In this document: positions 2,649 through 50,532 of the stretch, one piece after another | How the letters are laid out: the number at the start of each line of letters is the position of its first letter | Position numbering within the stretch: the first letter of the stretch is position 1 | From: Candidatus Kuenenia stuttgartensis | Lineage (GTDB): Bacteria; Planctomycetota; JAKEIC01; DYIT01 | Direction of reading: 5' to 3' | Length of the DNA stretch: 64,000 bases | Assembly (NCBI GenBank): GCA_020723505.1 | Contig: DYIT01000004.1 | Span: 14,560-78,559, forward strand | Notes under the pieces: generated by a model | The model's input: the letters and a program-made list of their open reading frames with translations, nothing else | The model's database searches: none | Told to the model about the DNA's origin: nothing | Position numbers and translations under genes: made by a program

Positions 2649-3622
2649 GGCAGCCCCCGCATCATCTCTTCCAGCGCCACTTCGACCCGCTCGTCCGGGC
2701 TTCCACGAAGCGACAGGTATAGGGAAAGGCGGTCGACCACGCCCTTCTCAGCGAAGAGGGACGGCGGGTAGATCCATACCTCGACATCGTCGGCCTCCGG
2801 ATTGCGATCAGGCATCTCCTCTGTGTCCAGTAATCCTGATGCCTTCCAGTCCTCCCGTCCGAAGGCGAAGGTCTCGTAGGAGGGCGGGGACAGGATGGAG
2901 TAGCGGGACAGGGCCGAGAGCCCGGCCTGGATTCCATTCGAGACCCGATTTCGCCGGTGGACGAACCGGCGCTTCAGAACCGGACTTCGAAGAAGGGATT
3001 GCGCTCTCTTCCAGACCTCGCCCCTGCTCCCGTCGAAGCGGAGGCATCGCTCCTTCCCGCACGCGGAGGCCTCGGCCAGGCGGGCGGCACCAAGCTCGTC
3101 GAAAGCTCTGCTCATCGTCATGGGGGAGTAGCCAAGTTCCCCCGCCATCCGTACCGGGACCAGCGGCTCCTCCGATCCGCGGAGCAGCCAGAAGAGGACG
3201 ACGGTCTGGGTGGAGGGGCTGAAGACCTCGGGCTCCTCGCGGAGCCTGGAGAAGTGCTCGCGCAGGTCCATGCCCAGCATGGGAAGGTACATCTGGTTAC
3301 CTGGGACCACGAAGGGGACCTTCTGCTCAATCAGCCGTTTCCGGTGGAACGCGGTGACGCGGGAGCGGACATAGACGACCTCGCCGTTCCAATTATCCCG
3401 CACCGCGTCCATGTGCTTCCGGATGACGGCCGGCGGCTGTTCCGCGCGGCCGGAATCGACCATCAGGAGGATCTGCAGGCCGAGGAGGCGCGCACTGCGA
3501 AACCCATACGCGGCCTTCAGGAAGTGCGGCAGGTTCGACTCCTCGGTCCAGGAAGAGGAATCTATCTCCACGCCAAGCACCGCGCGAATATAGGCTTCAA
3601 GATTCTTTATTTCCCGCTCCAT
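2642..3622 (-). CDS. AbiEi-like antitoxin / HTH regulator partner of the AbiEii-like toxin
   Basis: Lies immediately upstream of the NTase toxin and overlaps it. Central HTH-like segment MAGELGYSPMTMSRAFDELG. Start chosen at MEREIKNLEAY (ATG 3622, preceded by GGAAAGG); the ORF track extends to 3700. Confidence 0.5.
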   Translation of the reverse strand: MEREIKNLEAYIRAVLGVEIDSSSWTEESNLPHFLKAAYGFRSARLLGLQILLMVDSGRAEQPPAVIRKHMDAVRDNWNGEVVYVRSRVTAFHRKRLIEQKVPFVVPGNQMYLPMLGMDLREHFSRLREEPEVFSPSTQTVVLFWLLRGSEEPLVPVRMAGELGYSPMTMSRAFDELGAARLAEASACGKERCLRFDGSRGEVWKRAQSLLRSPVLKRRFVHRRNRVSNGIQAGLSALSRYSILSPPSYETFAFGREDWKASGLLDTEEMPDRNPEADDVEVWIYPPSLFAEKGVVDRLSLYLSLRGSPDERVEVALEEMMRGLPW

Positions 3623-14965: not shown

Positions 14966-17482
14966 TCAGGATTTCAGTCCTTGCTTGTCCAGTAGTAGTT
15001 CCTCGAATACAGCGTACAAGCTTTCGTAGACGGGCCGGCTTTCTTCAGTAGGTTCCGAGTAGCAGTGCCCCATCACTTCGCGAGAGAGCCGGCAGGAATC
15101 AATCAAGACCACGACCCGGCCCAATCCTTCGTCCTTCCAGACGCAACGAAAATTCTTGTCCGGGAGGTCGAACGACTTCCCGCCTTCGATACCGCCCATC
15201 GCGACCGGTTTGATTTCGATTTCATAAGGCTCCAGAATAACGGTGCCTGCTGAGATACTCGCAAGACCGGTGCAATCAACCAGAAGCAGTTTCCCGCCTT
15301 CGCGCACGAAATTCCAAATAATCTCATACTCCTCGGATTCAAAGGCGCGCACTGGATTAATCAGGAGCAGGATGTCAGCTTCCTTCACGGCCCTTTTTAT
15401 TGAATGTTTAATCGAGGGAATGCAACCGAGGCGTTGTAGAGTTACGAAGGGTGTGTCAAAAGCTCTCTTTAGGGGGATTCCGGGTGATCCGACTGCCCCG
15501 GGGAATCCGGCCTCGCATTTGCCACTTAGAAACACCACTCTCGGCCTCTTTACGAACGGCTCCGGAAGGCGATAGTTACGCCGGTTCACCTCCGAAACAA
15601 TGAAAAGCCCGGCTAGACAGCCCACGAAAGCCGCAGGAAGCCCCGCAGCATAAAGCGTGGAGGGTCCCCTCTTCCAGTGAGAAAGAAGCACAGTAGCGAG
15701 ACCTATCGCCCCGGTCAGTAAAAAAACAACGTTCAAGGCATACCCAAAGACGTTCCTCTGATTAAGGTAGTTCATGAACCCCAGAAGAAGGCGGTAGTGA
15801 TCATGCCTGAATAGTGCAAAGGTTGAAAAAACAGTCTCATCCCCCCACACGACGACCCGGCCTTTCCCGACCTTTGTCGCAGCACCGACCATCAAAGTGC
15901 CAAACCGGGAATTCAAATCAGGCCGGAATTCTCCAAAGTTGCTGGGATTCGCCACGTCTTTCCAGTCAGAATAGCAGTTATTCGTGAGGGCTACCGTCTC
16001 ACTCAGGATAGGAGCCTCGACTGAGCAGGACGTCATGAGCTCGAAGGGCTTCTCGACTCGACAAGCTGCAGGATGAAACCCTAGAGGTCCTTCATCGAAA
16101 AGCGTATAGCCCCCGGTGGTGAGCCCGCTCAGCGCGTCGGGCCTGAACCTGAGTCCGAACCGATCCACGAGACGGTTAGAGTTCGTAGTCATCCCCATGA
16201 GGTCGTTGTGGTCGGAAAGTACCAGGAGCCCTCCTCCGCGGCGGACGAAATCCTCCACGGCATTAATTTCCCCATCTTTCAGAGGAATCGTTGGTGTCTT
16301 GACGATCAGGACATCGTGGTCTTCCAGCAGCTCCGGCGTGAAATCCCCTTTCTCGTGAATGTTCACGACATAATATGAGGTGAGCAAGGAAACAGCGTTC
16401 GAGTAGCTGTAAGCCGCGAGGTCGCCATACCAATTCTTGTCGAACTTCTTTGAGACCTGTTCCCAGTAGTCGCTATGGCTGCCGTCCACGAGAATTCGCC
16501 CCTGTTTTTGCTTTCCAGGGTCGTGAAACGTAAGACCTGCCAGAATCAGGAATACCGAGCCTAAGATTGCCGCGGGGAGGCGAAGCGGAACCTGCCTGTA
16601 GATCTGCAAGGATTCGCGGCTTGTTGAGAACGCCCCTCGGAGGTCCAGGGGCAAGAACTTGCCGAGTATCAGGGCAAGCGGCAGGAACGTGGCGATGAGG
16701 AACCATGGATCCCAGAAAACCTCCATCGGAGGCGGAATCGAGTGGTCCTTATCCACATTGGGGAAGTCGGCATATATCGCGAGGACGATAATGAAGCGGA
16801 AGAACGAAAAAGCGAGCAATACCGTCATGAAGAACAGGAACCGCCGCATCCGACTTCCAAAAGCTCCTGCCAGGAACAGAACTAGACCAGCGAAGGCGAA
16901 GCAGGTCATCGGTAAAAAAGCGATCTTGCCCGTGCTGACCACAACGGGAAGGAGGGTTGAAGAACCCTCAAGGTAGGCAGTACCGCCGGAGACGGCGCAG
17001 TCATAACCGAGAATTCTCATCGTCCAGCAGACTGGCCATGAGAGGGCCGTGAAAAATTGTGTCCTTGGTTCAAGGTGCCGGAAGAGAGCACGGAGGACGA
17101 GTTGACCCGGGAAAATCGACAGGAAGACTAACACCGCTGAGAAGGAGATCATCAAAGCTGCTTTCATGCCTGATGCAATCCTGCTGATGCGAGTAAGCGA
17201 AGGCGAAGGTGTCCTATCCACGTGTTGTTCCTGGCGGGTCATCCAGGCAACGAGCAAAAATCCGGAAACGATGAAAGCGATACCCCACCCCCACCCGTGG
17301 TTGCCGTAGTTTCCCAACAGAAATGGCCATGAAAAGGACGCAGTTAGGACCCCGACCCAGATACCGTACCCACGTATCGAGGTCGTCCGAGTAGTCGGGC
17401 TGTCCTCTCCATCTGCAAGGACTCGGCGTGCGCTCTCTATTCCCGATGGCTCGTTTCCGACGCTAATCTGATTATCCCCCAT
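14966..17482 (-). CDS. Polytopic membrane protein (838 aa) with two alpha/beta 'GG.LL.L.DH' modules (GldG/DUF4350/GATase1-like by eye); paralogue of the next gene
   Basis: About 9 N-terminal hydrophobic helices, then module 1 (DVLIVKTP...EINAVEDFVRRGGGLLVLSDHNDL ... GKGRVVVWGDETVF). More helices follow, then module 2 (ADILLLINP...EIIWNFVREGGKLLLVDCTG ... GLGRVVVLIDSCRL). GC is in the mid-50s %, lower than the core. Confidence 0.7.
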   Translation of the reverse strand: MGDNQISVGNEPSGIESARRVLADGEDSPTTRTTSIRGYGIWVGVLTASFSWPFLLGNYGNHGWGWGIAFIVSGFLLVAWMTRQEQHVDRTPSPSLTRISRIASGMKAALMISFSAVLVFLSIFPGQLVLRALFRHLEPRTQFFTALSWPVCWTMRILGYDCAVSGGTAYLEGSSTLLPVVVSTGKIAFLPMTCFAFAGLVLFLAGAFGSRMRRFLFFMTVLLAFSFFRFIIVLAIYADFPNVDKDHSIPPPMEVFWDPWFLIATFLPLALILGKFLPLDLRGAFSTSRESLQIYRQVPLRLPAAILGSVFLILAGLTFHDPGKQKQGRILVDGSHSDYWEQVSKKFDKNWYGDLAAYSYSNAVSLLTSYYVVNIHEKGDFTPELLEDHDVLIVKTPTIPLKDGEINAVEDFVRRGGGLLVLSDHNDLMGMTTNSNRLVDRFGLRFRPDALSGLTTGGYTLFDEGPLGFHPAACRVEKPFELMTSCSVEAPILSETVALTNNCYSDWKDVANPSNFGEFRPDLNSRFGTLMVGAATKVGKGRVVVWGDETVFSTFALFRHDHYRLLLGFMNYLNQRNVFGYALNVVFLLTGAIGLATVLLSHWKRGPSTLYAAGLPAAFVGCLAGLFIVSEVNRRNYRLPEPFVKRPRVVFLSGKCEAGFPGAVGSPGIPLKRAFDTPFVTLQRLGCIPSIKHSIKRAVKEADILLLINPVRAFESEEYEIIWNFVREGGKLLLVDCTGLASISAGTVILEPYEIEIKPVAMGGIEGGKSFDLPDKNFRCVWKDEGLGRVVVLIDSCRLSREVMGHCYSEPTEESRPVYESLYAVFEELLLDKQGLKS

Positions 17483-17487
17483 TCGCC

Positions 17488-19980
17488 TTATCCTTTCCCT
17501 CTCAACTGCTTCATGCGCGTAAGCATGTTACGGATGAAAGTGATGTTCCCGAGGTGCCACGCCACCATGCTCTCAACATTCCTGTTTGTAAAAAAGCGGC
17601 TATCCGACACAAACAGCATGCCTCCCTTCCCGTACTCCCGGTAAGTTGCGAGCAAATCCCCTTTGGAAACGAAGAATCTGTGAACGGCGCCGGGCGCGAG
17701 ATCTCCTTTGCTAGAGGGAGCCGGCTCGCGCACAATGATGGGCCATGCATCCATGAACTCGGGGTCCATGGGTTTCTTGTCCTTGTAGTACGTGTTCGGT
17801 GCCCGTCCGAGTGACCGGCCTTCAATGTCCAACCCAATGGCCTCAAGGAGCCGCTGTGATCCCTCCCTTTCCTCGTACCCGACGCTTAGAATGACCTGGC
17901 CTCCCTTAGCCATATAGTCCGTGATTAGATCGACCTCGTGGCATTGAATCGTTTTGAGGGGAGAAAGGATGACCAGGAGTTCAGCCTCGGATATGCTCTT
18001 CCGGTCGAAACAATTCAGAGAAACCGGAATGAACGCATTCCGTTCCAGATTAAGGTACAGGGCGCCTATTCCCCTTCCCTCGTCTCCGCCCCGGGAGGCC
18101 CAGGGGATGTGGTAGTAGTCAATTGCGGCCAGAGGGCCGGCGATAGCAGGGCCGCTCATCCGCTCCTTCGAGATTACGTCGGAAACCGGTCCGGAAAGCG
18201 CGAGGAAGAATGGGAAGATCAACGCAAGCAGCCTGGAGCCGCCGGACGCGCCCAAGGTGGTCGTCAGCAGAATCACCCAGACCAGGAATGCCAGCGGCTT
18301 AAGCCAGTACCAGCGCCCGTACACCGTTTCGCAGGAAAGCCATGTAAAGACGTTGTGCAGGAAGGGGGTGTATATGGAAGTTACAGACCCGTTCTGAAAT
18401 GATGTCGTATCTCCGAAAACCAGCACTTTCCCCCTCCCGTAGAAGGCCGCCGCGAGCAGGCACATGTCCCCCAGCTTTTCCCCATGCTCGTAGGAGTAAT
18501 TCCCGAGAAGGGATCCGCCAACGTTGTAAGGATTGCCTCCGTCCGAGAAGGAGAGCGGCCCCCATATTATGGAAATCGCAGGCGGGCCGATGGTTAGAGA
18601 TGCGCCGACGTCTATCCCTGTCTCATCCCGCGATCGCGCGCCTGCCAAAACCGGATGCCGTGCGAAAGACTGGCAGTAACTCCAGCCTCCGCGGCACGGG
18701 AACGCGGAGTCGAATTCGAACCGAACGTTGATTCTGTCGAGAAGTTCGTTGTAGGTGTCCTGGAGCCCGAAGACGTTCGTGTGGTCGCCCAGGATGAGCA
18801 AAGCCCCGCCCCTTTCCACGAACCCCCAGATTGCCCGGATCTCCCCCTCCTCCCACCGACGCCCCAGGTTGATTATGGCGAAGATGTCAGTCTCTTCAAG
18901 TTGTTCGGGCTTGAGGCGTTCGGCGTCGAGTTTCGAGACCCGGAACCCGTCCAGTTCCAGGAAGGCGGGAAGATGTCCAAACATGCCTCCCGAGTACGAG
19001 CCGTACTTTCCTAAGACTGCGGTGTCCCAGTCTAGATAGCCCTTATTCCAGAACATAATCCGATTTCTTCGAGGGGACAGGATTTCCCATGATTGCATCT
19101 GAAAGAGCGTAATCGGGACAAACGCGGCAAGCGCAACTAAGCCGACTACCCTACTGCGACTCGAGAATAGTGCAGAAGGGATCCTCTCCTTCGCGGGAAA
19201 AAGCATGGAGAGCCCGGCCAATGGCATGAGCAGTACCGGAAAAAGCCATCGGACCGAATTGGCAAGCACACCCGCCTCTTGTGGAAAGACGGTCGACGAG
19301 CTCTGGATGACCAGGAAGGCCGTCCAAGCCCCGAAGACCACTATCAGAGCTGCCGATAAAACCCGCCATGCAAAAATTCGGAAGGCAGCGGTCCCAATCA
19401 AGTAGACAATCGCAAACAGAAGCACCCAGAGACCGGAAACGGATGGACCGATTGTAATCTCGGCATTGATTAATATGCGTCCAAGCAGACCTGTGTACTC
19501 GTTGCTGAAAACTTCGAAGAAATTGTAGACAATCGGAACGGTTTCCAGGGCGAACCCCAGCGCCCACGCGAAGTACGAAAGAAGGCGCAAAGGACCGGCG
19601 CATAACGCCGGGCGTCCCCAAATAGCCGATGCCCTTCCGAACCCCCAGAGAAAGACGATAAGTAAGCCAAGGACATAGAGCCGGTCGGTCGAGAGGAAGA
19701 GAAGAAAGCCAGGGAATGCCATTGAGAGATAGGGAAGAAGCGCGTTTCGACGGAAGATAGCTTCACGTTTCGAAGGAGCCTGGAAGAGAAGAAGTCCTGC
19801 AAGGAGAAGGGCGATAAACAAGCGGCCGTTTAAAGGGCTCAGGATGCCGAAAGTGCCCCATGCTATGAGAAGTATCAGGAGAAACGTGGAATGGATGACA
19901 AGGTTCCTTGCGACTTCGGAAACCCGCAGGTTGGTGATTTTCCCCCTCAATCTCCCGAGAATGGATTCACCTGCGCTCAT
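17488..19980 (-). CDS. Polytopic membrane protein (~830 aa), paralogue of 14966..17482 with the same two-module layout
   Basis: Module 1: DIFAIINLGRRWEEGEIRAIWGFVERGGALLILGDHTNV ... GRGKVLVFGDTTSF. Module 2: AELLVILSPLK...DLITDYMAKGGQVILSVGYEE ... GKGGMLFVSDSRFF. Start at MSAGES (ATG 19980, preceded by GGAGAAG) is preferred; the ORF track extends to 20055. Confidence 0.7.
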   Translation of the reverse strand: MSAGESILGRLRGKITNLRVSEVARNLVIHSTFLLILLIAWGTFGILSPLNGRLFIALLLAGLLLFQAPSKREAIFRRNALLPYLSMAFPGFLLFLSTDRLYVLGLLIVFLWGFGRASAIWGRPALCAGPLRLLSYFAWALGFALETVPIVYNFFEVFSNEYTGLLGRILINAEITIGPSVSGLWVLLFAIVYLIGTAAFRIFAWRVLSAALIVVFGAWTAFLVIQSSSTVFPQEAGVLANSVRWLFPVLLMPLAGLSMLFPAKERIPSALFSSRSRVVGLVALAAFVPITLFQMQSWEILSPRRNRIMFWNKGYLDWDTAVLGKYGSYSGGMFGHLPAFLELDGFRVSKLDAERLKPEQLEETDIFAIINLGRRWEEGEIRAIWGFVERGGALLILGDHTNVFGLQDTYNELLDRINVRFEFDSAFPCRGGWSYCQSFARHPVLAGARSRDETGIDVGASLTIGPPAISIIWGPLSFSDGGNPYNVGGSLLGNYSYEHGEKLGDMCLLAAAFYGRGKVLVFGDTTSFQNGSVTSIYTPFLHNVFTWLSCETVYGRWYWLKPLAFLVWVILLTTTLGASGGSRLLALIFPFFLALSGPVSDVISKERMSGPAIAGPLAAIDYYHIPWASRGGDEGRGIGALYLNLERNAFIPVSLNCFDRKSISEAELLVILSPLKTIQCHEVDLITDYMAKGGQVILSVGYEEREGSQRLLEAIGLDIEGRSLGRAPNTYYKDKKPMDPEFMDAWPIIVREPAPSSKGDLAPGAVHRFFVSKGDLLATYREYGKGGMLFVSDSRFFTNRNVESMVAWHLGNITFIRNMLTRMKQLRGKG

Positions 19981-22585
19981 CTTTCTCTTCTCCAGGCGCT
20001 GGCCCATGTTCCGGAGCAAGCAAGACTCGCAACGCTGCCGCGTTTCCCCGGACAAGGTTCAAGGGCCCCGCCTCTCCCGGGCTGAAACCCCTTGCCTCCG
20101 CGCGAAAAGTATACGTCCCCTGCTTAAGAAGTAATGAGACCTTGCCGTCTTCGCCGGCGATGGGATTGATGAGCCTCCTCTCCTTTCCTCCAGCCGTGAA
20201 GGCATGCAGTGAAGCTCCAGGAATCGGTTTGCCCTTGTCATCCAGGATCTCGGCCTCAACCTTCACGCCCATACCTAGGGAGAAGATTGCACTGAAGCCG
20301 TAATTGTTGTGCGAAACCTCTATCTCGTCGTTCACTTCCGGGGCGAGTTCATTACCCTGACCCACGAGCATGTACTTGCCCGGGTCGAGGTACTTGAAGG
20401 CGCCGAACGCCTTTGCCTCGAAGTCCTTGAATCTAGCCGTGCTGTGGATCGCCCAGGCGGGACTTCCCGGCGGTATATGATAGAGGACGACTTCCACGCT
20501 TCTGCCTGCGAGACTGCATCCCTCGCTCCTTACCTCGATGTTGATTTCCCCTCTCGGCAGGCTGATGTCTGCAACCAAGTGCCCGACCTTATCCTTGACT
20601 TCGATGTATTTGCGGTAAGTATCGCCTCGGCGTCTTACTTCGAGAGTGTACTTCCCGGGGCGGACTGTCTTGTATATGTAGCGCCCTTCCTTCATCTCAG
20701 CTTTCTGAGCAAATCGGGCGGTACGGTCCCATGGGTAGAGGAGGAAAATCTCGGCATCCTGAACCGGGAGCCCGCCGTAAATCAAGTTGCCTTCCAGAGA
20801 AGGGCTTAACCCGTACATCTTGTCGTTGAACTCAAGCTGTGAGCTCATTTCGTTATCAAGAATAAACCCGGTAACGGGATGCCTTTCCATTCCCTTGAGG
20901 GCACACAGGGAAGTGAGGTAGGAGAAGCCTGGATTTACACCCGTGAGATTGAAATTGCCATTACCGTCGGGGAAGGTGATACGGAAGAAGCCCTCCTCGT
21001 CATAGACGACTAAAGGCTCGAACTTGCAAAGAGCTTTCCCTGAAATACGCCCCCCTTTGGAGAGTTGGATGACGAGAGGTTCCGATGGTTTCTCTCCTTC
21101 CTTCCCTTTCTCCGTGCTCGGTCCAATCGAGACGAACCTCGTGGTTGCGTAGTCCGGGTGAACTACGAGAAAAAAGGATGGGTATGCCGGGACGCGGTCG
21201 AAGCAGAATCGGCCTCCAGCATCCGTCGCGGTCCAGCGCCGAATTACGGCGCCCCCTATATTCTGGACTATCGAACCAAGAAGCTTCCCGGCACGGTTGG
21301 AAGGTTCCCAACAGACCATGGCGTCAGACAGCGGCTCTCCAGTATCCTGCGCATGAACATGGCCTTTGACCTTGCGGCCGGCATTGAACCTAAGATCCTC
21401 TGGGTTGACTCTGCCGTCGGAGATCAGACGAAACGGATAGTATAGGTCCGCAAAGGCCGGATTTTCGGACCGGATTAGGTAGTTGCCTGCCGGAAGCGCA
21501 GGCAGCTCTATCCTGCCATCGTCATCTGATTTCACGGGTAGTGAAAATGCATCTTCCGGAATGTTCGGGATTGCGATGCGGAAGGCGGATTTCCCGATGG
21601 GATTTTTCCCTTCGGTGTCGGAAGCCCTGATAGTCCCTGCATCGGCCTTTGGCATGTCAATCTTCACCCCCTGGGATCCGGAGATCACGTTTTCGACTAG
21701 GGAAATGAATTTTCCTTTATTAAAGAGAAGCAGTGTGTATGGTCCGCCGGGGAGGTGCTCGAATCGGAAGGAGCCGTCATTCGCGGGGTGAATGATGAAT
21801 CGGAAGGGCACGGCAGGGGTCAGTGCGACCAACTCAATGTCCTCTGGGGCCATGTCCGTACTCGTCCTGACTGATCCCTCTAACCAAGCTCCTTCTTCGA
21901 GGCGAATCTTAAGCTCCTTCAACAAGACGCCGGGTCTGATGACTGCGCCCTTGCATGCAGGGGCAAAACCCTGTGACCAGGCATAGACCTTGAACGCGCA
22001 AGGCGGAAGTTCCGTTTTGAAGGCACCGTCTTTTTCTGAGACTAATGAAGCGACAGATGGGGAGGGCGAGCTCCTCGACTCTGCTCGGGGCAGGCTTCCT
22101 GACGAGCTGTTCCCGCCATGCGGCCACCCGAAACCCGGAAGTCCTGAAACACCTGAGGCAATGTCTTGCATGGCGAGGACACCGTCTTTGACCAGTAAAA
22201 CCGGCTCCGGATTCCACACTCCGTTGAATGGAACGAAAAATATCCGACATCCTGAAATTGATTTGGCTGAAGGGTTGAGTACCAATCCTTCAATCAAGCC
22301 CCGGTTCCCAGGGACTTTTTCCAGGGTTTTCGACGCATCACGCTCTTTATCTCCAGCCTTGTCCGAATCGTGTTCTCCTTTCTTTTTATCATCCACGGAA
22401 TGCTGTGGGTCGTTCGGAAACCAAATTCGATCATCACGGCGCCCTGCTGATCCCCAGAGCAAGAACGCGGAGACAATCGGAACGGAGGCGATAAGACCCC
22501 AAGAGGCGATCGTTACTGAAACTCTCAGGGGCGGCCAAGAAGCCGCCCCTGAGAGGAAATCCCGCATTTTACCGAAGGCATTCAT
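19967..22585 (-). CDS. N-terminally membrane-anchored protein (872 aa) built of repeated CarboxypepD_reg-like beta-sandwich modules
   Basis: Single N-terminal TM (VTIASWGLIASVPIVSAFLLW). Recurrent 'PG.Y' strand motif: LPGGPYTLLLF, LPAGNYLIRSE, VRPGKYTLEVR, LDPGKYMLVGQ, LKQGTYTFRAE. ATGA overlap with the upstream gene at 22582-22585. Confidence 0.75.
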   Translation of the reverse strand: MNAFGKMRDFLSGAASWPPLRVSVTIASWGLIASVPIVSAFLLWGSAGRRDDRIWFPNDPQHSVDDKKKGEHDSDKAGDKERDASKTLEKVPGNRGLIEGLVLNPSAKSISGCRIFFVPFNGVWNPEPVLLVKDGVLAMQDIASGVSGLPGFGWPHGGNSSSGSLPRAESRSSPSPSVASLVSEKDGAFKTELPPCAFKVYAWSQGFAPACKGAVIRPGVLLKELKIRLEEGAWLEGSVRTSTDMAPEDIELVALTPAVPFRFIIHPANDGSFRFEHLPGGPYTLLLFNKGKFISLVENVISGSQGVKIDMPKADAGTIRASDTEGKNPIGKSAFRIAIPNIPEDAFSLPVKSDDDGRIELPALPAGNYLIRSENPAFADLYYPFRLISDGRVNPEDLRFNAGRKVKGHVHAQDTGEPLSDAMVCWEPSNRAGKLLGSIVQNIGGAVIRRWTATDAGGRFCFDRVPAYPSFFLVVHPDYATTRFVSIGPSTEKGKEGEKPSEPLVIQLSKGGRISGKALCKFEPLVVYDEEGFFRITFPDGNGNFNLTGVNPGFSYLTSLCALKGMERHPVTGFILDNEMSSQLEFNDKMYGLSPSLEGNLIYGGLPVQDAEIFLLYPWDRTARFAQKAEMKEGRYIYKTVRPGKYTLEVRRRGDTYRKYIEVKDKVGHLVADISLPRGEINIEVRSEGCSLAGRSVEVVLYHIPPGSPAWAIHSTARFKDFEAKAFGAFKYLDPGKYMLVGQGNELAPEVNDEIEVSHNNYGFSAIFSLGMGVKVEAEILDDKGKPIPGASLHAFTAGGKERRLINPIAGEDGKVSLLLKQGTYTFRAEARGFSPGEAGPLNLVRGNAAALRVLLAPEHGPAPGEEKDERR

Positions 22586-22725
22586 TTCCTTTTATCGCTC
22601 TTGTCGTTATTTGCAGGCGGAGGAGGCGGATCAGCGAAGAACTCCACGCCGGCGGAAATCGGGGAGAGGTTCCCCGCCGCATCCCGCGCCTGCGCATGGA
22701 TCGTGTGCCAGCCGGGCGACAGCGG
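22569..22725. repeat. Direct repeat copy A (~157 bp): 3' end of the Ig-repeat gene plus the first 6 codons of the 872-aa gene
   Basis: Aligns by hand with 26840-26988. The first ~120 nt differ at about 7 positions. The last ~30 nt are more diverged, with a 9-nt indel (ccagccggg present only in copy A). Confidence 0.85.
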
Positions 22726-24981
22726 TTTGACGACCTGGAAAGAGAACAACCCGCCCCCATCCGCAGGCGTCTCCCCTTCCGGATTTGCATCAATAAGGAT
22801 TGACACGATGCTCAGAGGCTCTGAGGTTCCCCTGATTATTGGGGTCTTTGTCGTCATCTCGCCGTTCACCGGCGATCTGATGAGGGGTGCCGCCGGAGGC
22901 ACAGTGTCTACTTTGAATACGATGGTCTCGGAGGTTGCAGTGTTTCCTGCGCCATCTGAGGCTACGGCGTAGACTGTGTGGAGACCCTCAGCCAAGGGGG
23001 CGGTCAGAGTGAATGAGAACACTCCGCCCGGTCCGGTAGTTGTGGTTCCGGCCAGGTTCTCGTCAACCACGATTGCGATTTCTGCGTCAGAGTCCGTGCC
23101 TGCGCCGGAAATTGTCGGCGTGCTGTCGTTTGTCAGTTCAATTGGGTTGAGAATCGGTGTCCCGATGAGCGTATCCACAGTGAATGAAACTGTTTTGGAT
23201 GCGGCCGTGTTTCCCGCAGCGTCAGTCGCCACGGCGTAGCCCGTGTGCAGACCGTCGCCAAGCGCAGTGGGTACCGTCATATTGAACCCGCCGCCTTCGT
23301 TTGCCGTGACCAAACCAACCAGATCGCCATCAACGTATACATGCACTAAAGCGCCCACATCTGTTCCTGAACCCACAACATCAGGTGTGTTGTCCGAGAT
23401 TACGCTCCCGTTGGCCGGACTCGTGATAATCGGCGTTCCAATCACGGTGTCAATAATAATATGCACATAGTTTGACGGTTCTGTGAATACTCCTTCCGGA
23501 CTCACGCCAATTGCAAAAATAACATGCTCACCATCCTGTAAAATAATTTCCGTTTCATATTCGAATTGTCCGCTTGGACATGATATTTCTTCAATCTCAA
23601 TGCTATCAATATAGAATTTGCAATTAAATCCAACTTCCACTGTTCCAATTATTTCTGGTTTACTATCATTTGATATCAGATAATCAGGAGGGGAAACAAT
23701 ATGTGGCGGAGAATATCCATGCTCTCTACCACATGTTCCACTCTCATCTGGGACTTTTTTTGTTTTCCTTACACTGCATCTAATAGCCTCACCACTTTGG
23801 TTATTGCCAATACTGCAGACTCCTTTTTTCTCTTCATTCAATAATGTGCAAATCCCTTTCCCAACATCCTCAACAGAACAAAATGCATTGTTCTTTTTTC
23901 CGACCTGATTCTCAGAAGGAGTAAATACTGAACATTGTCCAGTATTTGCTTCCTGCATAATGCTGCAGTTCGAAAAGTGCCCGGATCCGCCACCGTCCAT
24001 AACTGAGCAAAATGCATCAAATGCACCTTTTTCAATTGAACATCTTGCTTCTCCCGTTTGAGTGCTTTGCACACTGCATTTAGCTACCCCCATTCCTCCG
24101 CCATCAGAGTCAATAGCACTGCATTCTGGACTTCTTTCACCATCGAGTGGAGAATCATGAAAGACACTGCAACTAGAATTGTTACCGCTGTCATTGCTAA
24201 AAACTGAACAAAAAACCTCCTCCGTTTCTTTTTGTACAACCGAGCATTTCTGTTGTTCTCCGCGATCCATGAAAACGCTGCACATGTCGCTCGATCCAAT
24301 TCTAGTTCTCGATTTACCTACGCTGCAATTTGCTTTCCCACCTTCCCCTGCATTATCAACAGAACACCATTGATCTGATTCTTTTGACCAGCTTACGACC
24401 GAACAACCTGCTTGCCCTGCCGATTTAGTACTTTCTAGAACACTACAACTATTTCGATGAGGAGGTCCCTCTGTCGATCCCTCTTGTACGCTACAACTTG
24501 CCCTACCCGAATCAACCCATGCCGAGCAAAACGTATTCTCTTTGCTTGTATCGAATACCGAGCATGAACTTTTATTTGAGTTTCCATAAACTGAGCATCG
24601 TGCCTCTCCAATATCATTTTCACCAACAACAGAGCATTGCTTCCTATCTTCCGCTACAGAACAGTGCTGACTCTCCCCCGATGTTGAGCATCTTCCTCCA
24701 GCATATATATCGCAATCAACTGAACAATTTTTATCTGGCCGCGGGAGATGCTCTGTACTACATACAATATTTTGAATAGAAATAACACCGGATTCTGCAA
24801 TACCAAAAGGATTCTGGATTTTAATTTCATTTGATAAAATCCTAGAACCGATATTTTCACAATCCAGTTGGCCTAGATAATTATAGTTCAATTCAGCAAA
24901 ACAAACATCAACCTGAAAAGAAAGTAACGAAATTACAAGAACCAAACCGTATCTGATATTTCTATAGCTTGTGCTACTCAT
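22582..24981 (-). CDS. Secreted chimeric surface protein (799 aa): signal peptide, ~27 'C-S-V' repeat units, one AT-rich Ig-like module, then three GC-rich bacterial Ig-like repeats and a Pro/Lys tail
   Basis: Signal peptide MSSTSYRNIRYGLVLVISLLSFQVDVCFA. C-S-[VIA] units span residues 74-417. Three ~90-aa repeats end in ...GLHTGYAVATDAAGNTA / ...GLHTVYAVASDGAGNTA / ...GWHTIHAQARDAAGNLS. GC jumps from the mid-30s % to roughly 55-65% near 23450 inside the ORF. Confidence 0.8.
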   Translation of the reverse strand: MSSTSYRNIRYGLVLVISLLSFQVDVCFAELNYNYLGQLDCENIGSRILSNEIKIQNPFGIAESGVISIQNIVCSTEHLPRPDKNCSVDCDIYAGGRCSTSGESQHCSVAEDRKQCSVVGENDIGEARCSVYGNSNKSSCSVFDTSKENTFCSAWVDSGRASCSVQEGSTEGPPHRNSCSVLESTKSAGQAGCSVVSWSKESDQWCSVDNAGEGGKANCSVGKSRTRIGSSDMCSVFMDRGEQQKCSVVQKETEEVFCSVFSNDSGNNSSCSVFHDSPLDGERSPECSAIDSDGGGMGVAKCSVQSTQTGEARCSIEKGAFDAFCSVMDGGGSGHFSNCSIMQEANTGQCSVFTPSENQVGKKNNAFCSVEDVGKGICTLLNEEKKGVCSIGNNQSGEAIRCSVRKTKKVPDESGTCGREHGYSPPHIVSPPDYLISNDSKPEIIGTVEVGFNCKFYIDSIEIEEISCPSGQFEYETEIILQDGEHVIFAIGVSPEGVFTEPSNYVHIIIDTVIGTPIITSPANGSVISDNTPDVVGSGTDVGALVHVYVDGDLVGLVTANEGGGFNMTVPTALGDGLHTGYAVATDAAGNTAASKTVSFTVDTLIGTPILNPIELTNDSTPTISGAGTDSDAEIAIVVDENLAGTTTTGPGGVFSFTLTAPLAEGLHTVYAVASDGAGNTATSETIVFKVDTVPPAAPLIRSPVNGEMTTKTPIIRGTSEPLSIVSILIDANPEGETPADGGGLFSFQVVKPLSPGWHTIHAQARDAAGNLSPISAGVEFFADPPPPPANNDKSDKRK

Positions 24982-26411
24982 TTAGGACCCCCTTTTCCGA
25001 AAAAGTCCTCGAGAAACCCTTCAGCTGCTTCTTCAGGAGACAACCGCTTGATATATACTTTAGCTTCTATGTCTGGGCCATCTATAACTAACGTGTTATC
25101 AGCGCCAGGAAATACACTGATTAGCTTGTAATAGTCTGATTGAATTTTAAGCACATGTGTGCCGATTGGGACATTTGATACAATAGTATATCCGGCTGTA
25201 TTTGAGTTAAATTTAATCGGCGCAAACCTGTGCGACTTTTCAATCAACAGGAATTTAATTACATCAGAAAAGGGGGCACGGTTATCATCATTAATAAAAT
25301 GAATATTCAATTTATAAGCCTTTTCCAGAAGGAAATCAATTCTGTTAATATTCTGTTTATCATTTATTATAAAAGTAGTGGACATTTTCGCAAATCCTTC
25401 GCAACCAATAACCAAATCGTACTCTCCGAAAGGGACATTACGCAAAGAAAATGTACTCTCGGAGAAAACGCCGGATTTCCTTAAACTGTATATTTCATTG
25501 CAATTTGGCGAGATTGAGATAAGCTCATATGAGAATTCACATTTATCATGGTTGAAACAAGGGTTATTTATCTGAATCTGTAGCTCTGCAACCGATAAGA
25601 AAATATCGAACTTAACGGGCAGGTTATTAAAAACGACATTTCTTGAAAGTGTGACTGAATTTTCGTTAGGTAGAAATATATAAATATAATAATCCTCAAG
25701 AAGCATTCCAGGAAAGATATAAAAACCATCCGACATAGTAAGATAAGATTGGAAAAGTCTATGATTCTGATGCAATTCTATCCGTGCATTTTCAACTGGG
25801 ACGTAATGCTTATCATAGATAGTGCCATAAAGAGAATCATCGCCAATTAAGAAAAAGTCAGGGAGAACTAGATTCAGTCTCTTAACGTCATTTGGAAATA
25901 GAGAAATCTTTACTGATTTGTAAATCATACTATTTTCAGGAAGAAAAGCGATAATCGAAACAAAATGAGGTCTTGCAACCAAAGTCTGAATAGAATAGAA
26001 TGTGCCGTCTTCAGATGCAAAGAGAATCTTCTGCCTGGAACTGGGATTATTTACAATGATTTTTGCGTTTGAACATGGGGATCCATCTGCTTTTAGGACT
26101 TTGCCGAGCACCATGGCTTCATTAAATCTCAGATTCGATATATTTGTTTGGAAATCTGTCAATCTATTTTGACAAATCTGATTGTAAGATTGCTCTGATG
26201 AAACAGAATCAAAAAAGGTTTGATTTAATCCAACTGAATTCGCAGCATTTTGTGATAAGGAATAGCCAGCTAGGGTTATGGAATCACCTGCTTTTAAAAA
26301 ATGAATAAATAGAAAAATAGCAAATAAACAAATAAAAACTATTATAAAGAAGGAAAGATAAATAGATTTACAATTCCAATGGGAGTTCTTTATATTATCA
26401 TATTTAATCAT
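24978..26411 (-). CDS. N-terminally membrane-anchored protein (477 aa) with ~4 CarboxypepD_reg-like beta-sandwich modules; very AT-rich
   Basis: TM IYLSFFIIVFICLFAIFLFIHFL. Module starts such as GKVLKADGSPCSNAKIIVNN and GTIYDKHYVPVENARIELHQ. 'P.G.Y/H' strands NVPFGEYDLVIG and NVPIGTHVLKIQ. ATGA overlaps at both ends. About 32-35% GC. Confidence 0.7.
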   Translation of the reverse strand: MIKYDNIKNSHWNCKSIYLSFFIIVFICLFAIFLFIHFLKAGDSITLAGYSLSQNAANSVGLNQTFFDSVSSEQSYNQICQNRLTDFQTNISNLRFNEAMVLGKVLKADGSPCSNAKIIVNNPSSRQKILFASEDGTFYSIQTLVARPHFVSIIAFLPENSMIYKSVKISLFPNDVKRLNLVLPDFFLIGDDSLYGTIYDKHYVPVENARIELHQNHRLFQSYLTMSDGFYIFPGMLLEDYYIYIFLPNENSVTLSRNVVFNNLPVKFDIFLSVAELQIQINNPCFNHDKCEFSYELISISPNCNEIYSLRKSGVFSESTFSLRNVPFGEYDLVIGCEGFAKMSTTFIINDKQNINRIDFLLEKAYKLNIHFINDDNRAPFSDVIKFLLIEKSHRFAPIKFNSNTAGYTIVSNVPIGTHVLKIQSDYYKLISVFPGADNTLVIDGPDIEAKVYIKRLSPEEAAEGFLEDFFGKGGPK

Positions 26412-26629
26412 GATGCCAACCCCATTGAGGTTTTGTAATAAAACTTACAGATGTCGACAAATAGGTAGTTAATAATAGCTGTACGTGCTGAAGAAAATCT
26501 TTGAAATCCATTGAACATGTCCTTCATCCTAAGCCAAATTTCCCATCGCATCGATTTAACCAAATGAGGGTGGATGTAAAATAATGAGCAAATAACATCC
26601 ATAATCCCTCCATGTTTATAGAATCCCAA
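26408..26629 (-). CDS. Possible small ORF (73 aa) heading the AT-rich part of the operon
   Basis: Its stop overlaps the start of the 477-aa gene in an ATGA arrangement. A 73-codon open frame is fairly unusual in ~33% GC DNA. No recognisable motif. Confidence 0.25.
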   Translation of the reverse strand: MGFYKHGGIMDVICSLFYIHPHLVKSMRWEIWLRMKDMFNGFQRFSSARTAIINYLFVDICKFYYKTSMGLAS

Positions 26630-26839
26630 TCCCCATCCTTAAAGTCAAGAAAAATCAGAAAAACAAAAAACGTGTGAAATGTTATTGGGGAGTTCGGAAA
26701 CCGAGTACAGTCAAGTGTGGTTACAGTTCTCTTGGATATCCTTCGGTTGATTCAAAACGACGCAACAACCAGTAGGCCAATGTGTTACAACGCAGCTACG
26801 AAAACGGAAGCCTCATAATTTCATAGAAAAACCCGTTTC

Positions 26840-26988
26840 TTACCGAAGGCAATCATTTCTTTTTATCGCTCTTGTCGTTATTTGCAGACGGAGGAGGCGG
26901 ATCTGCGAAGAACTCCACGCCGGCGGAAATCGGGGAGAGGTTCACAGCCGCATCTCGCGCCGCGCAATGGACCGTGTGTGACAGCGGG
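26840..26988. repeat. Direct repeat copy B (~149 bp), same orientation as copy A, at the right edge of the AT-rich block
   Basis: Encodes ...HTVHCAARDAAVNLSPISAGVEFFADPPPPSANNDKSDKKK*, versus ...HTIHAQARDAAGNLSPISAGVEFFADPPPPPANNDKSDKRK* in copy A. It then retains ATGATTGCCTTCGGTAAG (MIAFGK; copy A has MNAFGK) before AT-rich DNA starts at 26839. Confidence 0.85.
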
Positions 26989-27257
26989 GCGCGCTCGAAA
27001 AGGACCCTGTTCGTGATTTCAGCGCCCACGTACTTGAGGGCACGTGAGAGCATACCCACTGCGTAATTCGCGGCAGCCGGATCCGAGTCGACGGGCGGAA
27101 GAACCAGCACGACCTTCTTGCCCTTGAACGGGAACTTGCGGATTGCGTCGAACCAGCGGTACACGAAAGCCTTGAACTGGGCGGTGGGCCCCCACCAGTA
27201 CTCGGGCGTCCCCAGAACCGTTCCCACACCCCGCTCTCCTCCACATTGCGGCTTCAT
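26853..27257 (-). pseudogene. Chimeric remnant: internal fragment of a flavodoxin-like/NADPH-dependent FMN reductase-type protein fused to a duplicated tail of the Ig-repeat gene
   Basis: LGTPEYWWGPTAQFKAFVYRWFDAIRKFPFKGKKVVLVLPP...YAVGMLSRALKYVGAEI resembles the middle of flavodoxin-family proteins (GtPvYw...t.q.KafiDR). The N-terminal FMN-binding part is missing, with an in-frame TGA 3 codons upstream of the ATG. The C-terminal 40 aa are repeat copy B. Confidence 0.55.
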
Positions 27258-41040: not shown

Positions 41041-41919
41041 TCAGGGCTCGCGTAGGACGATTTTCTTCGCGTTGTGGAACAGGGCCACGCGCATTCCTGC
41101 GGGCATGGCCTTGGCTGCATTGCGGACCTTTTCCTCGATTTCCGCCGACTTGTAGCGCGTAGACACGTGTATCAGCATGACTGCGCCGACGCGGGCGTCG
41201 GCCGCGGTCCCAAGCGCTTCGTCGAGGGACGCGTGGACGTTGAACTCCCTGTCCTCCCCTGCGAGGAAGGTGGAATCGTGAATCAGGAACTCGGCTTCCA
41301 TGATGTCGGCGGGATCGAGGGCGAGCGAATCGCCGCTGTATGCCATCAGCACGTGTTCGTACTGCTCGGATACGGCCTCCCTCCCCTTCTCCTTCGCGAT
41401 GGCCGCGATTTCCCTCTCGCTCAAGCCGTTGAGCCCGCTCTTGAGCCTCGTCCGCTTTTCAACCAGCTTGTATCCGAGGGTTGTCTGGTTCCTGACATGC
41501 CTGGTCCTGAACGCTTGTATCGTCCACGACCCGGATCCCGCGGCGAGCGGGACGCCTTCGCCGTGGGATAGGCCCTTCCACGAGAGCTCGTAGCCCAGCC
41601 CGCGGGCGAGATGCAGTATGTACTCCCTCTGGAGCTGCACGTACGGGTCGCCGGCGGGGTGGAACACTTCGAGCGGCAGGGTTTTCTCGCCCATGGCGGA
41701 GTTCCTCGCCAGGACGATACCGGGAAGCCCTCCGATGTGGTCGTGATGGCCGTGGGTGAGAAAGACGGCGCGGACGCCGAATACCGTATTCGCGAGCCTT
41801 GACGCCGCGCCCTCGCCCGCGTCGAGCATGATGCCCGCCGGGGGGTAGTAGAACCAGGTGGAATACATGGCTTTCGAGAAGCCGCGGAGGTTCTCGAAGA
41901 TGTCCTGGGGAAGGCTCAC
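41041..41919 (-). CDS. MBL-fold metallo-hydrolase (RNase Z/BN-like)
   Basis: HxHxDH motif THGHHDHIGG, later His/Asp ligands, 292 aa. 4-nt overlap with the upstream AIM24-family gene. Confidence 0.75.
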   Translation of the reverse strand: MSLPQDIFENLRGFSKAMYSTWFYYPPAGIMLDAGEGAASRLANTVFGVRAVFLTHGHHDHIGGLPGIVLARNSAMGEKTLPLEVFHPAGDPYVQLQREYILHLARGLGYELSWKGLSHGEGVPLAAGSGSWTIQAFRTRHVRNQTTLGYKLVEKRTRLKSGLNGLSEREIAAIAKEKGREAVSEQYEHVLMAYSGDSLALDPADIMEAEFLIHDSTFLAGEDREFNVHASLDEALGTAADARVGAVMLIHVSTRYKSAEIEEKVRNAAKAMPAGMRVALFHNAKKIVLREP

Positions 41920-42581
41920 GATTCTCCCCTGGCGGCCTTGGCCTGGAGGACGCGCTTCAGGGACTGGACGAACACCTTTCCAGGGCCGGTGAGTTTCGTC
42001 ATGAACACGCCTTCGCCGCCGAAGATCATCTTTAGGCAGCCGCCGACGCTCGTGACGCTGTAGTCCACGGTCGCCTGGAAGGCCGCGAGGTTGCCGGTCG
42101 AGACAAGGATGCTCTCCCCGGGTTTGAGGTCGTACTCAACGAGATCGCCTGCGACCGAGAGGAAAGCCAGGCCGTTGCCCTTGAGGTGCTGGAGCAGGAG
42201 TCCGCCTCCGCCGAAGAACATCGCGCCCGCGCGCCTCGCCATGGTGACGGATATGTCGATTTCGCCCACGGCGGCCAAAAAACCGCCGCGGAGCGCAACG
42301 AGGTCCCCTGCCTGGCCGAGGTTCCAGACGACCACCTTGCCCGGCGACCTCGACGCGAAGTTGATGCGGCCGGCGCTTTTCGCCGTGCAGTGCGTGAGCG
42401 TCAGCGACTCGCCCGAGAGCATGCGCGAGACCGTCTTGCCCATGCCGCCGGGGATTTTCAGCGTCCAGTCGATTGTGTCGTCGTAGGAGACAATCGACCC
42501 CTTCGACGCCCAGCAGCTCTCGCCCTGATCGAGTTCGAAGGAGAGGGTCTGGTTAATCACGCCTTCAATCTGGTATTTCAT
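41916..42581 (-). CDS. AIM24/TIGR00266-family protein (DUF124)
   Basis: MKYQIEG...LSFELDQGES...SGESL...FFGGGGLLLQHLKGNGLAFL...GESILVSTGNLAAF...DYSV...IFGGEGVFMTKLTGPGKVFVQSL follows the family pattern end to end. Confidence 0.75.
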   Translation of the reverse strand: MKYQIEGVINQTLSFELDQGESCWASKGSIVSYDDTIDWTLKIPGGMGKTVSRMLSGESLTLTHCTAKSAGRINFASRSPGKVVVWNLGQAGDLVALRGGFLAAVGEIDISVTMARRAGAMFFGGGGLLLQHLKGNGLAFLSVAGDLVEYDLKPGESILVSTGNLAAFQATVDYSVTSVGGCLKMIFGGEGVFMTKLTGPGKVFVQSLKRVLQAKAARGES

Positions 42582-42583
42582 GT

Positions 42584-43264
42584 TCAGCTCGGAATCATTT
42601 CCAGCAGTTTGAAAATGCCCTTCACGGTCTTGGGCTCACGCTTTATATTCTGCACCAGCACCTTGCCTGGACCTTCCATGCGGGTCATGAAAATCCCTTC
42701 GCCGCCGAATATCATCTTGAAGCACCCTCCGACGCCCTTGATGCTGTAGTCGACGGTCGTGGCGAACGCGGCGAGGTTGCCGGTCGAGACCAGGATCGAC
42801 TGGCCGGCGGCGAGGTCGTAGTCGATTAGGTCGCCCTGGACCGAAATGAATGCGCGGCCAGTGCCGGAAATGGTCTGCAGCAGAAGGCCGGCGCCGCCGA
42901 ATAGGGCCGCCAGGGGATTGCGCGCGATGTTCACGTCTATCGAGACGTCGCCGACGGCGGCGAGGAAGTTGTGCTTCAGGGTGGTGACCGGCCCCTTGGT
43001 CAAATCCCAGTCGTAGATGAGCGACGGCCTGTGGCAGGCCAGCTGCAGCCTCCCCCTGGCTTCGGCGACGACTTTCAGCAGGAATACGGATTCGCCGGAG
43101 AGGCGCCTCGAGACAATCTTGAGGGGGCCGCCCGGGATGCGCGGGGACCAGTCAACGCCTTCGGTGAAGCTCATCAGGGCGTTCTTGGCCGCCCAGAGCC
43201 GCTCGCCGGGCTCGAGGTCGAAGGACACCACCTGATTGAGGATTCCTGCTATTCCGTATTGCAT
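42584..43264 (-). CDS. AIM24/TIGR00266-family protein, tandem paralogue
   Basis: MQYGIAG...VSFDLEPGER...SGESVFLL...LFGGAGLLLQTISGTGRAFI...GQSILVSTGNLAAF...DYSI...IFGGEGIFMTRMEGPGKVLVQNI. 2-nt gap to the downstream paralogue. Confidence 0.75.
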   Translation of the reverse strand: MQYGIAGILNQVVSFDLEPGERLWAAKNALMSFTEGVDWSPRIPGGPLKIVSRRLSGESVFLLKVVAEARGRLQLACHRPSLIYDWDLTKGPVTTLKHNFLAAVGDVSIDVNIARNPLAALFGGAGLLLQTISGTGRAFISVQGDLIDYDLAAGQSILVSTGNLAAFATTVDYSIKGVGGCFKMIFGGEGIFMTRMEGPGKVLVQNIKREPKTVKGIFKLLEMIPS

Positions 43265-50455: not shown

Positions 50456-50532
50456 CCCCTTGACCTTGCAGGCTTCCGGACATGCGGCTTGCATGCCGGC
50501 CGGCGTCCGACTCCTCTTTTTATTCTATCGCG

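Follow-up and report, generated by a model that had tools for sequence, protein, structure and literature searches.

The window analysed here is a stretch of 64,000 nucleotides (nt) from the Candidatus Kuenenia stuttgartensis assembly GCA_020723505.1 (contig DYIT01000004.1, positions 14,560 to 78,559). It contains two imperfect direct repeats, each of about 170 bp, that bracket a 4.27-kb segment of an operon-like gene group encoding predicted surface proteins. The inner repeat, copy A, is a working gene-gene junction, while the outer one, copy B, is an orphan that is fused to a piece of a flavoprotein gene. All the genes of the locus are on the minus strand, in the order dnaJ, a spacer, the flavoprotein fragment, copy B, AT-rich DNA, a gene for a protein of 477 amino acids (aa), a 799-aa gene with immunoglobulin-like (Ig) domains, an 872-aa gene, a pair of DUF4350 genes, and a gene for a RimK-type ATP-grasp protein. 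The features that define the repeat and the chimeric open reading frame (ORF) at its outer copy are as follows.

22554..22726, minus strand: copy A, the working junction, with the tail of the 799-aa gene (stop at 22584-22582), the ATG at 22585-22583 and the start of the 872-aa gene.
26825..26999, minus strand: copy B, the orphan junction, with its stop at 26855-26853 and its ATG at 26856.
26853..27257, minus strand: chimeric 134-aa ORF, made of the flavoprotein fragment and the Ig tail of copy B.
27000..27236, minus strand: internal fragment of an FMN_red/flavodoxin-like gene, corresponding to residues ~80-156 of homologues of ~185 aa; GC content at third codon positions (GC3) 0.79.

A repeat search of the window revealed direct copies at 22554-22707 and 26825-26978, which are 88% identical and spaced by 4271 bp. 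When the window was compared with itself by blastn, the match extended over 22554-22718 and 26825-26991 (88.7% identity over 168 columns, E 6e-54), and this pair was the top-scoring repeat of the whole 64 kb. A 35-nt core of the repeat has two exact occurrences, with none expected. Aligned base by base, the copies differ by substitutions at 21 of 172 columns, the longest exact run being 39 nt, and the differences appear to be unevenly distributed. The central 93 nt include 4 mismatches (96% identity), whereas the two flanks together include 17 in 79 positions (~78% identity). Fisher's exact test gives p 8e-4 for this partition, which was chosen post hoc, and ~0.02 with conservative edges. The high-coordinate edge of the repeat is fuzzy (22718-22726 in copy A, 26991-26999 in copy B), and two alignments of it are possible, one with a single gap of 9 nt and the other with a gap of 2 nt and a +1/-1 pair. 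On the low-coordinate side, similarity stops sharply at 26825, which is the point where the base composition switches; upstream extension of the match beyond the core is not significant.

Each copy consists of the last ~45 codons of an Ig frame, a TGA stop, an overlapping ATG (in the form ATGA), and 11 codons of the next frame. The next gene starts with MNAFGKMRDFL in copy A, and with MIAFGKKRVFL followed by a stop in copy B. Because copy B spans the ATGA overlap between two genes, it derives, either as a copy or as an allele, from a junction between an Ig gene and an 872-type gene that was already in place. The first-pass annotation of this DNA had reported two same-orientation copies at 22569-22725 and 26840-26988, with ~7 differences in the first ~120 nt, a more diverged remainder and a 9-nt indel. 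The copies are indeed real and their divergence follows that description; the coordinates point to the right location, although they fall ~15 nt short at the low-coordinate end. The content assigned to each copy (Ig tail, stop and overlapping ATG) was also correct, except that the similarity covers 11 codons of the next gene instead of the 6 proposed.

In copy B, the overlapping ATG at 26856 opens a mini-ORF of 11 codons (MIAFGKKRVFL*) that ends at 26821, and the Ig tail is in frame with the flavoprotein fragment. The ~45 Ig codons and the 11 codons of the next gene are all that is present, since the remainder of either gene is absent beside this copy. When compared with the conserved features of the Ig domains, copy B has a deletion of the G-x-H segment and a change from Gly to Val in the invariant AGN motif, a Gly that is kept in all the other Ig domains of the locus and in the relative described below. 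In addition, its differences from copy A tilt towards A/T (10 versus 4). Such an A/T lean is as expected of an unconstrained copy, and copy B is probably non-functional under every model of its origin.

An imperfect direct repeat of ~150 nt at the 3' end of the gene for an Ig surface protein superficially resembles the template repeat and variable repeat (TR/VR) of a diversity-generating retroelement (DGR). Under this explanation, the Ig gene would have a variable 3' end in one copy, for which the other copy would serve as template. The substitution pattern effectively refutes this kind of programmed variation, as it is not adenine-specific: the mismatched positions use all four bases in both copies (G8 A5 C4 T4 in copy A; T8 A7 G4 C2 in copy B). 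Moreover, the repeat extends past a stop codon and into the next gene, the large ORFs between 10.2 and 34.2 kb (the range covered by the Pfam scan) include no reverse transcriptase, and no defence or phage families were matched. According to these data, we regard the DGR explanation as practically untenable.

Beyond copy B, inside the AT-rich DNA, one further short match to the 872-aa gene was detected.

26686..26702, minus strand: possible vestige of further homology, in which 15 of 17 bases match 22406-22422, 9 nt out of register.

This 17-nt match is located ~125 nt beyond copy B, and corresponds to codons ~55-60 of the 872-aa gene. It includes an exact 11-mer that occurs only at these two sites of the window. 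A band-limited shuffle gave p ~0.001 for the match, and none of 60 real-sequence controls yielded one. The 120-130 nt between copy B and the vestige are no more similar to the corresponding part of the 872-aa gene than shuffled sequence. The uneven divergence of the repeat and this isolated match are unexplained hints of an older, longer homology, and the low-divergence centre could be either a gene-conversion patch or the mark of an older origin. These observations would be accounted for if copy B were the remnant of an old paralogous module, that is, of earlier upstream Ig and 872-like genes that have eroded, with the centre of the copy refreshed by gene conversion from copy A. Such a history would explain the 96% core between ~78% flanks, the in-frame indels and the collinear position of the possible vestige deeper in 872-like sequence. 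Nevertheless, the merely shuffle-level similarity of the stretch that separates copy B from the vestige, the presence of flavoprotein rather than Ig sequence upstream of copy B, and the post hoc nature of the heterogeneity test (p ~0.02 with conservative edges) all argue against it, and we consider it improbable.

The chimeric ORF is found in the public record as a 124-aa protein with a GTG start at 27227. An exhaustive HMMER search with the 134-aa translation returned three kinds of matches: the public record of the protein itself, the 799-aa protein, and flavodoxin-like proteins. Residues 86-134 of the chimera match residues 751-799 of the 799-aa protein (its last 49 residues), and residues ~13-87 match residues ~80-156 of many flavodoxin-like proteins of ~183-195 aa. 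A multiple alignment showed that the fragment is missing the N-terminal ~80 residues, including the strand and the loop (of the GSPRxxGNT type) that bind the phosphate of flavin mononucleotide (FMN), as well as the C-terminal ~30 residues and the helix that immediately precedes the TPxYW motif. The Pfam match is restricted to positions 73-112 of a 152-position profile, with a score below the curated cut-off. In a tblastn search of the whole window with nine flavoprotein homologues, the sole match was 27218/27236-27000, and the missing halves of the gene were found neither at the far end of the low-GC region nor elsewhere in the window. The reading frame of this fragment of 220-237 nt continues into the last two strands of an Ig domain. 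The first-pass annotation had interpreted the ORF as a chimera with an internal flavodoxin-like piece deprived of its N-terminus, an interpretation that is confirmed here and can be extended to the C-terminal end. Judging from the alignments, the fragment is an internal gene piece truncated at both ends that cannot be a working flavoprotein, and the 134-aa chimera as a whole is probably not functional.

The many flavoproteins of ~115 aa obtained in the search of representatives were rejected as evidence for the ORF of the window being a natural short form, because they start at a conserved internal Met and are most simply explained as truncated calls. The best homologue of the fragment is located on a contig of 704 bp, which offers no gene context. 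With a GC3 of 0.79, close to the 0.81 of dnaJ and trkA, the fragment can be considered a remnant of local core DNA.

Three joints are thus found between dnaJ and the operon. The first one (J1, ~27236) connects the spacer downstream of dnaJ with codon ~80 of the flavoprotein gene; the second one (J2, ~27000) connects flavoprotein codon ~156 with the Ig tail; and the third one (J3, 26824/26825) connects a point 33 nt into the 872-type start with the upstream DNA of the following genes. The proximity of two short internal gene pieces, with no trace of the remainder of either, is what would be expected from a templated patchwork, in which template switching or filler capture would have closed a single break located between dnaJ and the operon. 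Two short pieces would have been pasted in, 220 nt of a flavoprotein gene from elsewhere and 170 nt of the Ig/872 junction located 4.3 kb away. For the second piece a template is indeed available nearby, and a single event would account for J1, J2 and J3. However, no source flavoprotein gene is present within the window, the joints are too diverged to reveal microhomology, and the flavoprotein piece exhibits the local core composition and is situated where a neighbouring gene would lie. We therefore attach only a small probability to this mechanism.

The remaining features of the locus are listed below in the order of transcription.

28536-27373, minus strand: dnaJ, separated by a 136-nt spacer from the flavoprotein fragment.
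26412..26824, minus strand: AT-rich upstream region of the module, 413 nt with 38.5% GC, which starts at J3 (26824/26825).
26408-26602, minus strand: 64-aa ORF, whose ATG is preceded at 4 nt by GGAGG and whose stop overlaps the ATG of the 477-aa gene.
24978..26411, minus strand: 477-aa gene, encoding an N-terminal membrane anchor and CarboxypepD_reg-like beta-sandwich domains; GC3 0.31.
22582..24981, minus strand: 799-aa CSV/Ig gene, encoding a signal peptide, CSV motifs, four Big_13-type Ig-like domains and a Pro/Lys-rich tail.
19967..22585, minus strand: 872-aa gene, encoding an N-terminal membrane anchor and repeated CarboxypepD_reg domains.

From the 64-aa ORF onward, the genes overlap by 4 nt or are tightly packed, as in an operon. 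The 64-aa ORF, for which no family match was found, is possibly the first gene of this operon. The bracketed segment of 4.27 kb only holds this ORF, the 477-aa gene and the 799-aa gene. The 799-aa protein exhibits 24 CS[VIA] motifs between residues 86 and 404, with a spacing of 9-21 residues, and this repeat region has no match in Pfam or NCBIfam. The DUF4350 pair located downstream encodes membrane proteins of 855 and 838 aa, which are paralogues with 26% identity.

The 872-aa gene is annotated in the public record as a 628-aa protein. From residue 96 onward, the longer product aligns collinearly with an 820-aa orthologue, encoded on metagenome contig L084, from residue 90 of the latter, and both proteins carry an N-terminal anchor. 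For these reasons, the 872-aa form (or one of 866 aa) is a better call than the public one, and the repeat does include the start of a gene. The 872-aa protein has no relatives in the GTDB representatives or in the protein collection beyond its own public record. Exact look-ups of the 872-, 134-, 628- and 799-aa products did not retrieve any contigs.

The locus is compositionally stratified. Most of the window has a GC content of ~62-64%, which is ~54-56% at 15000-23000 and 38% at 23470-26824; at position 26824 it falls from ~57-60% to ~38%. In terms of GC3, three layers can be distinguished: the core genes (~0.8); the 872/855/838-aa genes together with the last 300 codons of the 799-aa gene (0.61-0.67); and the 477-aa gene together with codons 1-500 of the 799-aa gene (~0.3). 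The limit between the last two lies within the 799-aa gene, with a GC3 of 0.29 in codons 1-500 and 0.62 afterwards. This step is placed at codon ~505 (window ~23466), just before the sequence HIIIDT (residue 507).

A search covering 5.8 billion proteins and the contigs of the Joint Genome Institute (JGI) identified relatives of the 799-aa protein only on three contigs of ~4.2 kb from one species (L001, L082 and L083), with 41% identity. In these contigs, a CarboxypepD_reg-like ORF is followed by the CSV/Ig gene, and by another ORF that overlaps the stop of the latter; the first ORF (442 aa in L001/L082) is a weak positional homologue of the 477-aa gene. The same compositional step is also observed, as GC3 rises from ~0.35-0.45 to 0.6-0.9 at the homologous codon, with HIIIDT at residue 328 of a 526-aa product. 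According to these comparisons, the low-GC part and the GC-rich Ig part constitute one conserved module with a built-in compositional step. The first-pass annotation had treated the AT-rich block as an independent insert, a proposal that does not hold, because the relatives share the gene order and the GC3 step, and the block is therefore not a separate insertion into a native gene. No terminal repeats are present at the ends of the two contigs of this species that were added by a metagenome scan, which do not show DNA similarity to the tail of the window's gene or to its upstream region.

The conserved step has implications for the reliability of the assembly as well. The source of the window is a 95.6-kb metagenome-type contig without isolate relatives, a situation in which an assembly artefact or a strain chimera has to be considered. 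However, the two copies differ at 21 positions and in indels, with a longest exact run of 39 nt, which is not the picture left when an assembler collapses a repeat or joins it wrongly. The GC step does not interrupt the 799-aa ORF, and both the architecture and the step recur in an independent species, assembled in three samples, which argues against a chimeric join at that point. An artefact is thus very unlikely.

Some other observations were made on this gene family. The step in GC3 within a gene (window ~23466; L001 ~3300-3450) is conserved between proteins with only 41% identity, and is unexplained. In the related species, the CSV repeats differ in length by 62 nt between L001 (~2240-2320) and L082 (~2220-2360), a difference that splits the CSV/Ig gene into ORFs of 284 and 526 aa in one sample, while the gene is intact (856 aa) in the two others; this is due either to indel variation in the population or to an assembly error.

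The genes downstream of the repeat have a different distribution. Relatives of the 855-aa protein with 37% identity were found on contigs L084-L086, where two DUF4350 proteins are encoded after the 820-aa orthologue of the 872-aa protein, and no 477-like or CSV/Ig gene is located directly upstream of this set. The 872/855/838-like genes of these contigs have ~55% GC within flanks of 62-70% GC, and adjoin a large serine recombinase and a tyrosine integrase (L084 2714-6395 and 7536-14860, and also in L085 and L086), which suggests that they travel on a mobile island there. Remoter relatives retain just the DUF4350 pair. This distribution fits a gene set that would itself be island-like, and to which the 477/799 module would have been added in the lineage of the window; the module-free upstream side in L084-L086 marks the module as an optional addition. 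A CSV protein is also encoded in L084, where an 898-aa protein with a signal peptide (18419-21115, minus strand) consists almost entirely of CSV-type motifs (~55). Its gene is convergent with the three genes and located 3.5 kb downstream of them. The CSV family is therefore functionally linked to the 872/855/838-like genes without a fixed position. In the three cases known (the window, L082 1434-4004, and L084), this family of secreted repeat proteins is encoded near CarboxypepD_reg and paired DUF4350 genes. A CSV-repeat family with a conserved neighbourhood that is absent from Pfam is the more interesting by-product of this analysis.

According to the evidence presented above, the repeat is probably the passive scar of some duplicative rearrangement. 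Duplicative recombination, whether by a single crossover, by a homology anchor combined with an illegitimate join, or by tandem duplication, is the most economical origin. The first-pass annotation had proposed the integration of a circular element or a local duplication. The duplicative part of this proposal stands, but no mark of a mobile element accompanies the repeat. The large ORFs between 10.2 and 34.2 kb encode spermidine-synthase-like, CorA, RimK, DUF4350 (two), CarboxypepD_reg (two), Ig, DnaJ, TrkA, TrkH, sugar nucleotidyltransferase (NTP-transferase) and PGI proteins; outside the operon they are housekeeping genes, and none of them encodes an integrase or transposase. Moreover, no tRNA, tmRNA or Rfam family was detected anywhere in the window. 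A phage or defence origin of the module was also rejected, since PHROGs only matched the Ig domain and both PADLOC and a viral-contig scan were empty. The possibility that the repeat or the interval 26596-26860 holds a structured RNA, leader or attenuator was likewise rejected (folding z-scores of -1.0, -0.3 and +0.7; no Rfam match). The locus is most probably an ordinary scar, and not a mobile element or a programmed variation system.

Among the duplicative routes, the one tentatively preferred, at somewhat less than even probability, is that the 4.27-kb module was added, or added again, upstream of the 872-aa gene through a shared tail. On the resident chromosome, the 872-aa gene would have overlapped at its start with the end of an Ig-domain gene, and this Ig end would have been joined, then or later, to the flavoprotein remnant beside dnaJ (J2, ~27000). 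Diverged but related DNA, which held the complete module together with an Ig tail and an 872 start of its own, would then have arrived and recombined through the shared sequence. This may have occurred from a circular copy, by a single crossover within the ~170 bp of homology (Campbell type), or from a linear fragment, with a homology anchor in the 872-aa gene and an illegitimate connection to a point 33 nt inside the resident 872 start (J3). In either case, the resident tail would have been orphaned upstream, while the incoming tail would have become part of the working gene. Copy B would thus mark the former upstream end of the 872/855/838 operon, before the module was placed there. We infer both the order of these events and a donor in a different genome.

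This route is favoured because the module is optional among relatives, because its composition differs from that of both neighbouring layers, and because the 11% divergence between the copies becomes an allelic difference instead of requiring the long survival of a useless fragment. The occurrence of the module as a unit in another species (L001/L082/L083) also counts in its favour. On the other side, several points weigh against it. A recent import is not proven by the low GC of the module, since the same GC3 step is found in the relative. Exchange across ~170 bp with 89% identity and a longest exact run of 39 nt would be inefficient. The contrast between the 96% centre and the ~78% flanks (again with the test being post hoc) is not predicted, and a clean illegitimate joint at J3 would not leave an isolated collinear 17-nt match beyond copy B. 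Extra deletions are needed to account for a flavoprotein piece truncated at both ends, a demand that is common to every model, each of which requires at least one further deletion. Finally, no donor, empty-site allele, circular form or close relative that could show the direction or order of the event was found in the collections searched.

Nearly as good an account is provided by a tandem duplication in situ followed by deletion, although taken on its own it is rather unlikely. The segment from 26824 to ~22554 would have been duplicated head to tail, generating J3; later, most of the upstream copy and the 3' part of the flavoprotein gene would have been lost, generating J2, and copy B would have decayed. 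The geometry obtained is the same as that observed, and neither a foreign donor nor a recombinase is needed. The AT bias and the lost Ig residues of copy B fit neutral decay from copy A, and the low-GC state of the module is long-lived in the family, so the module may be old at this site. Nevertheless, one end of a deletion would have to fall only 50 codons short of where the upstream copy stops, and another deletion is needed for the 5' end of the flavoprotein gene. Uniform neutral decay does not predict a 96% centre between 78% flanks, and a divergence of 11-22% implies that a useless piece of 170 nt survived for a long time while the 4 kb around it were deleted.

The two tails could instead be the working ends of a recombination cassette, used in the natural population for the repeated loss, regain, swap or amplification of the module by RecA-type exchange between the conserved Ig-tail/872-start segments. 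The first-pass annotation had calculated that recombination between the copies would excise the intervening DNA, and it would indeed remove 4271 bp. A cassette of this kind would provide on/off or allele switching of a surface structure with no need for a dedicated recombinase, but we consider this role highly doubtful.

The window originates from a deep, essentially unsampled lineage. Its DnaJ is at most 43-45% identical to that of any of 185,579 species representatives, and the best matches are scattered across Nitrospirota, Clostridia and others. As these matches span 37-45% identity over many phyla, a comparison of synteny near dnaJ is impossible. A metagenome scan only added two further contigs of the one related species. 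Elsewhere in the window, two pairs of adjacent paralogues were noticed. The first one, at 50482-54237 and 54335-58003 (plus strand; ~1250 and ~1220 aa), shares a 635-nt stretch with 67% identity, and the second one, at 41916-42581 and 42584-43264 (minus strand; ~221 and ~226 aa), shares 218 nt with 75% identity. Positions 1-1000 have 43% GC, compared to ~62% elsewhere, and represent a compositionally foreign stretch at the edge of the window. For annotation purposes, caution is advised with two entries: the 124/134-aa "protein" at 26853-27257 consists of two fused gene fragments, and the 872-aa gene has been under-called as 628 aa.

Several known systems resemble this locus in part. In Campbell-type integration, same-orientation copies bracket the inserted DNA, and exchange between them would remove it, as it would remove 4271 bp here. 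Contrary to typical cases, no integrase, attachment (att) site, tRNA target, or plasmid or phage genes are present; the shared segment is just ~170 bp long, 89% identical and coding; and the site before insertion must already have been a fusion between the flavoprotein fragment and the Ig tail. The TR/VR pairs of DGRs are similar in size, in their imperfect identity and in the location of one copy at the 3' end of a gene for an Ig-fold surface protein, and differ in the adenine specificity of their substitutions, in their reverse transcriptase, and in that the repeat described here crosses a stop codon.

Remnants of tandem duplications are known from experiments with bacteria, where a novel join point is accompanied by the partial loss of one copy. 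The locus resembles them in its direct copies, in the later loss of one of these, and in J3, a novel joint at which a gene broken off 33 nt after its start meets an intergenic position located upstream. Experimental duplications in bacteria are usually lost whole by homologous recombination, whereas here 170 of the 4271 nt (4%) of the upstream copy would have survived, with a divergence of 11%.

The displacement of effector genes offers another parallel. Orphan gene ends in type VI secretion system (T6SS), rhs and contact-dependent inhibition (CDI) loci have been attributed to homology-facilitated illegitimate recombination (PMC5361080). Both in the orphan immunity arrays of the Vibrio T6SS and in the C-terminal displacement of rhs and CDI genes, an incoming module, anchored by a conserved neighbour, displaces the end of the resident gene, and the orphan piece keeps a short homology to the working gene (PMC5361080). 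In the window, direct copies likewise flank the added DNA, and one of them is an orphan fragment. The arrangement is mirrored, however, with the anchor downstream and the orphan upstream, and there is one orphan instead of an array, with neither a toxin/immunity logic nor an obvious selective reason to keep it. The repeat can thus be regarded as one more case of an event of known type, and as a local record of how an accessory surface-protein operon was built up in a scarcely sampled lineage. Its value is modest, and lies in showing in nature an orphan gene end on the upstream side, left by duplicative recombination, the mirror image of the orphan ends found downstream at rhs, CDI and T6SS effector genes.

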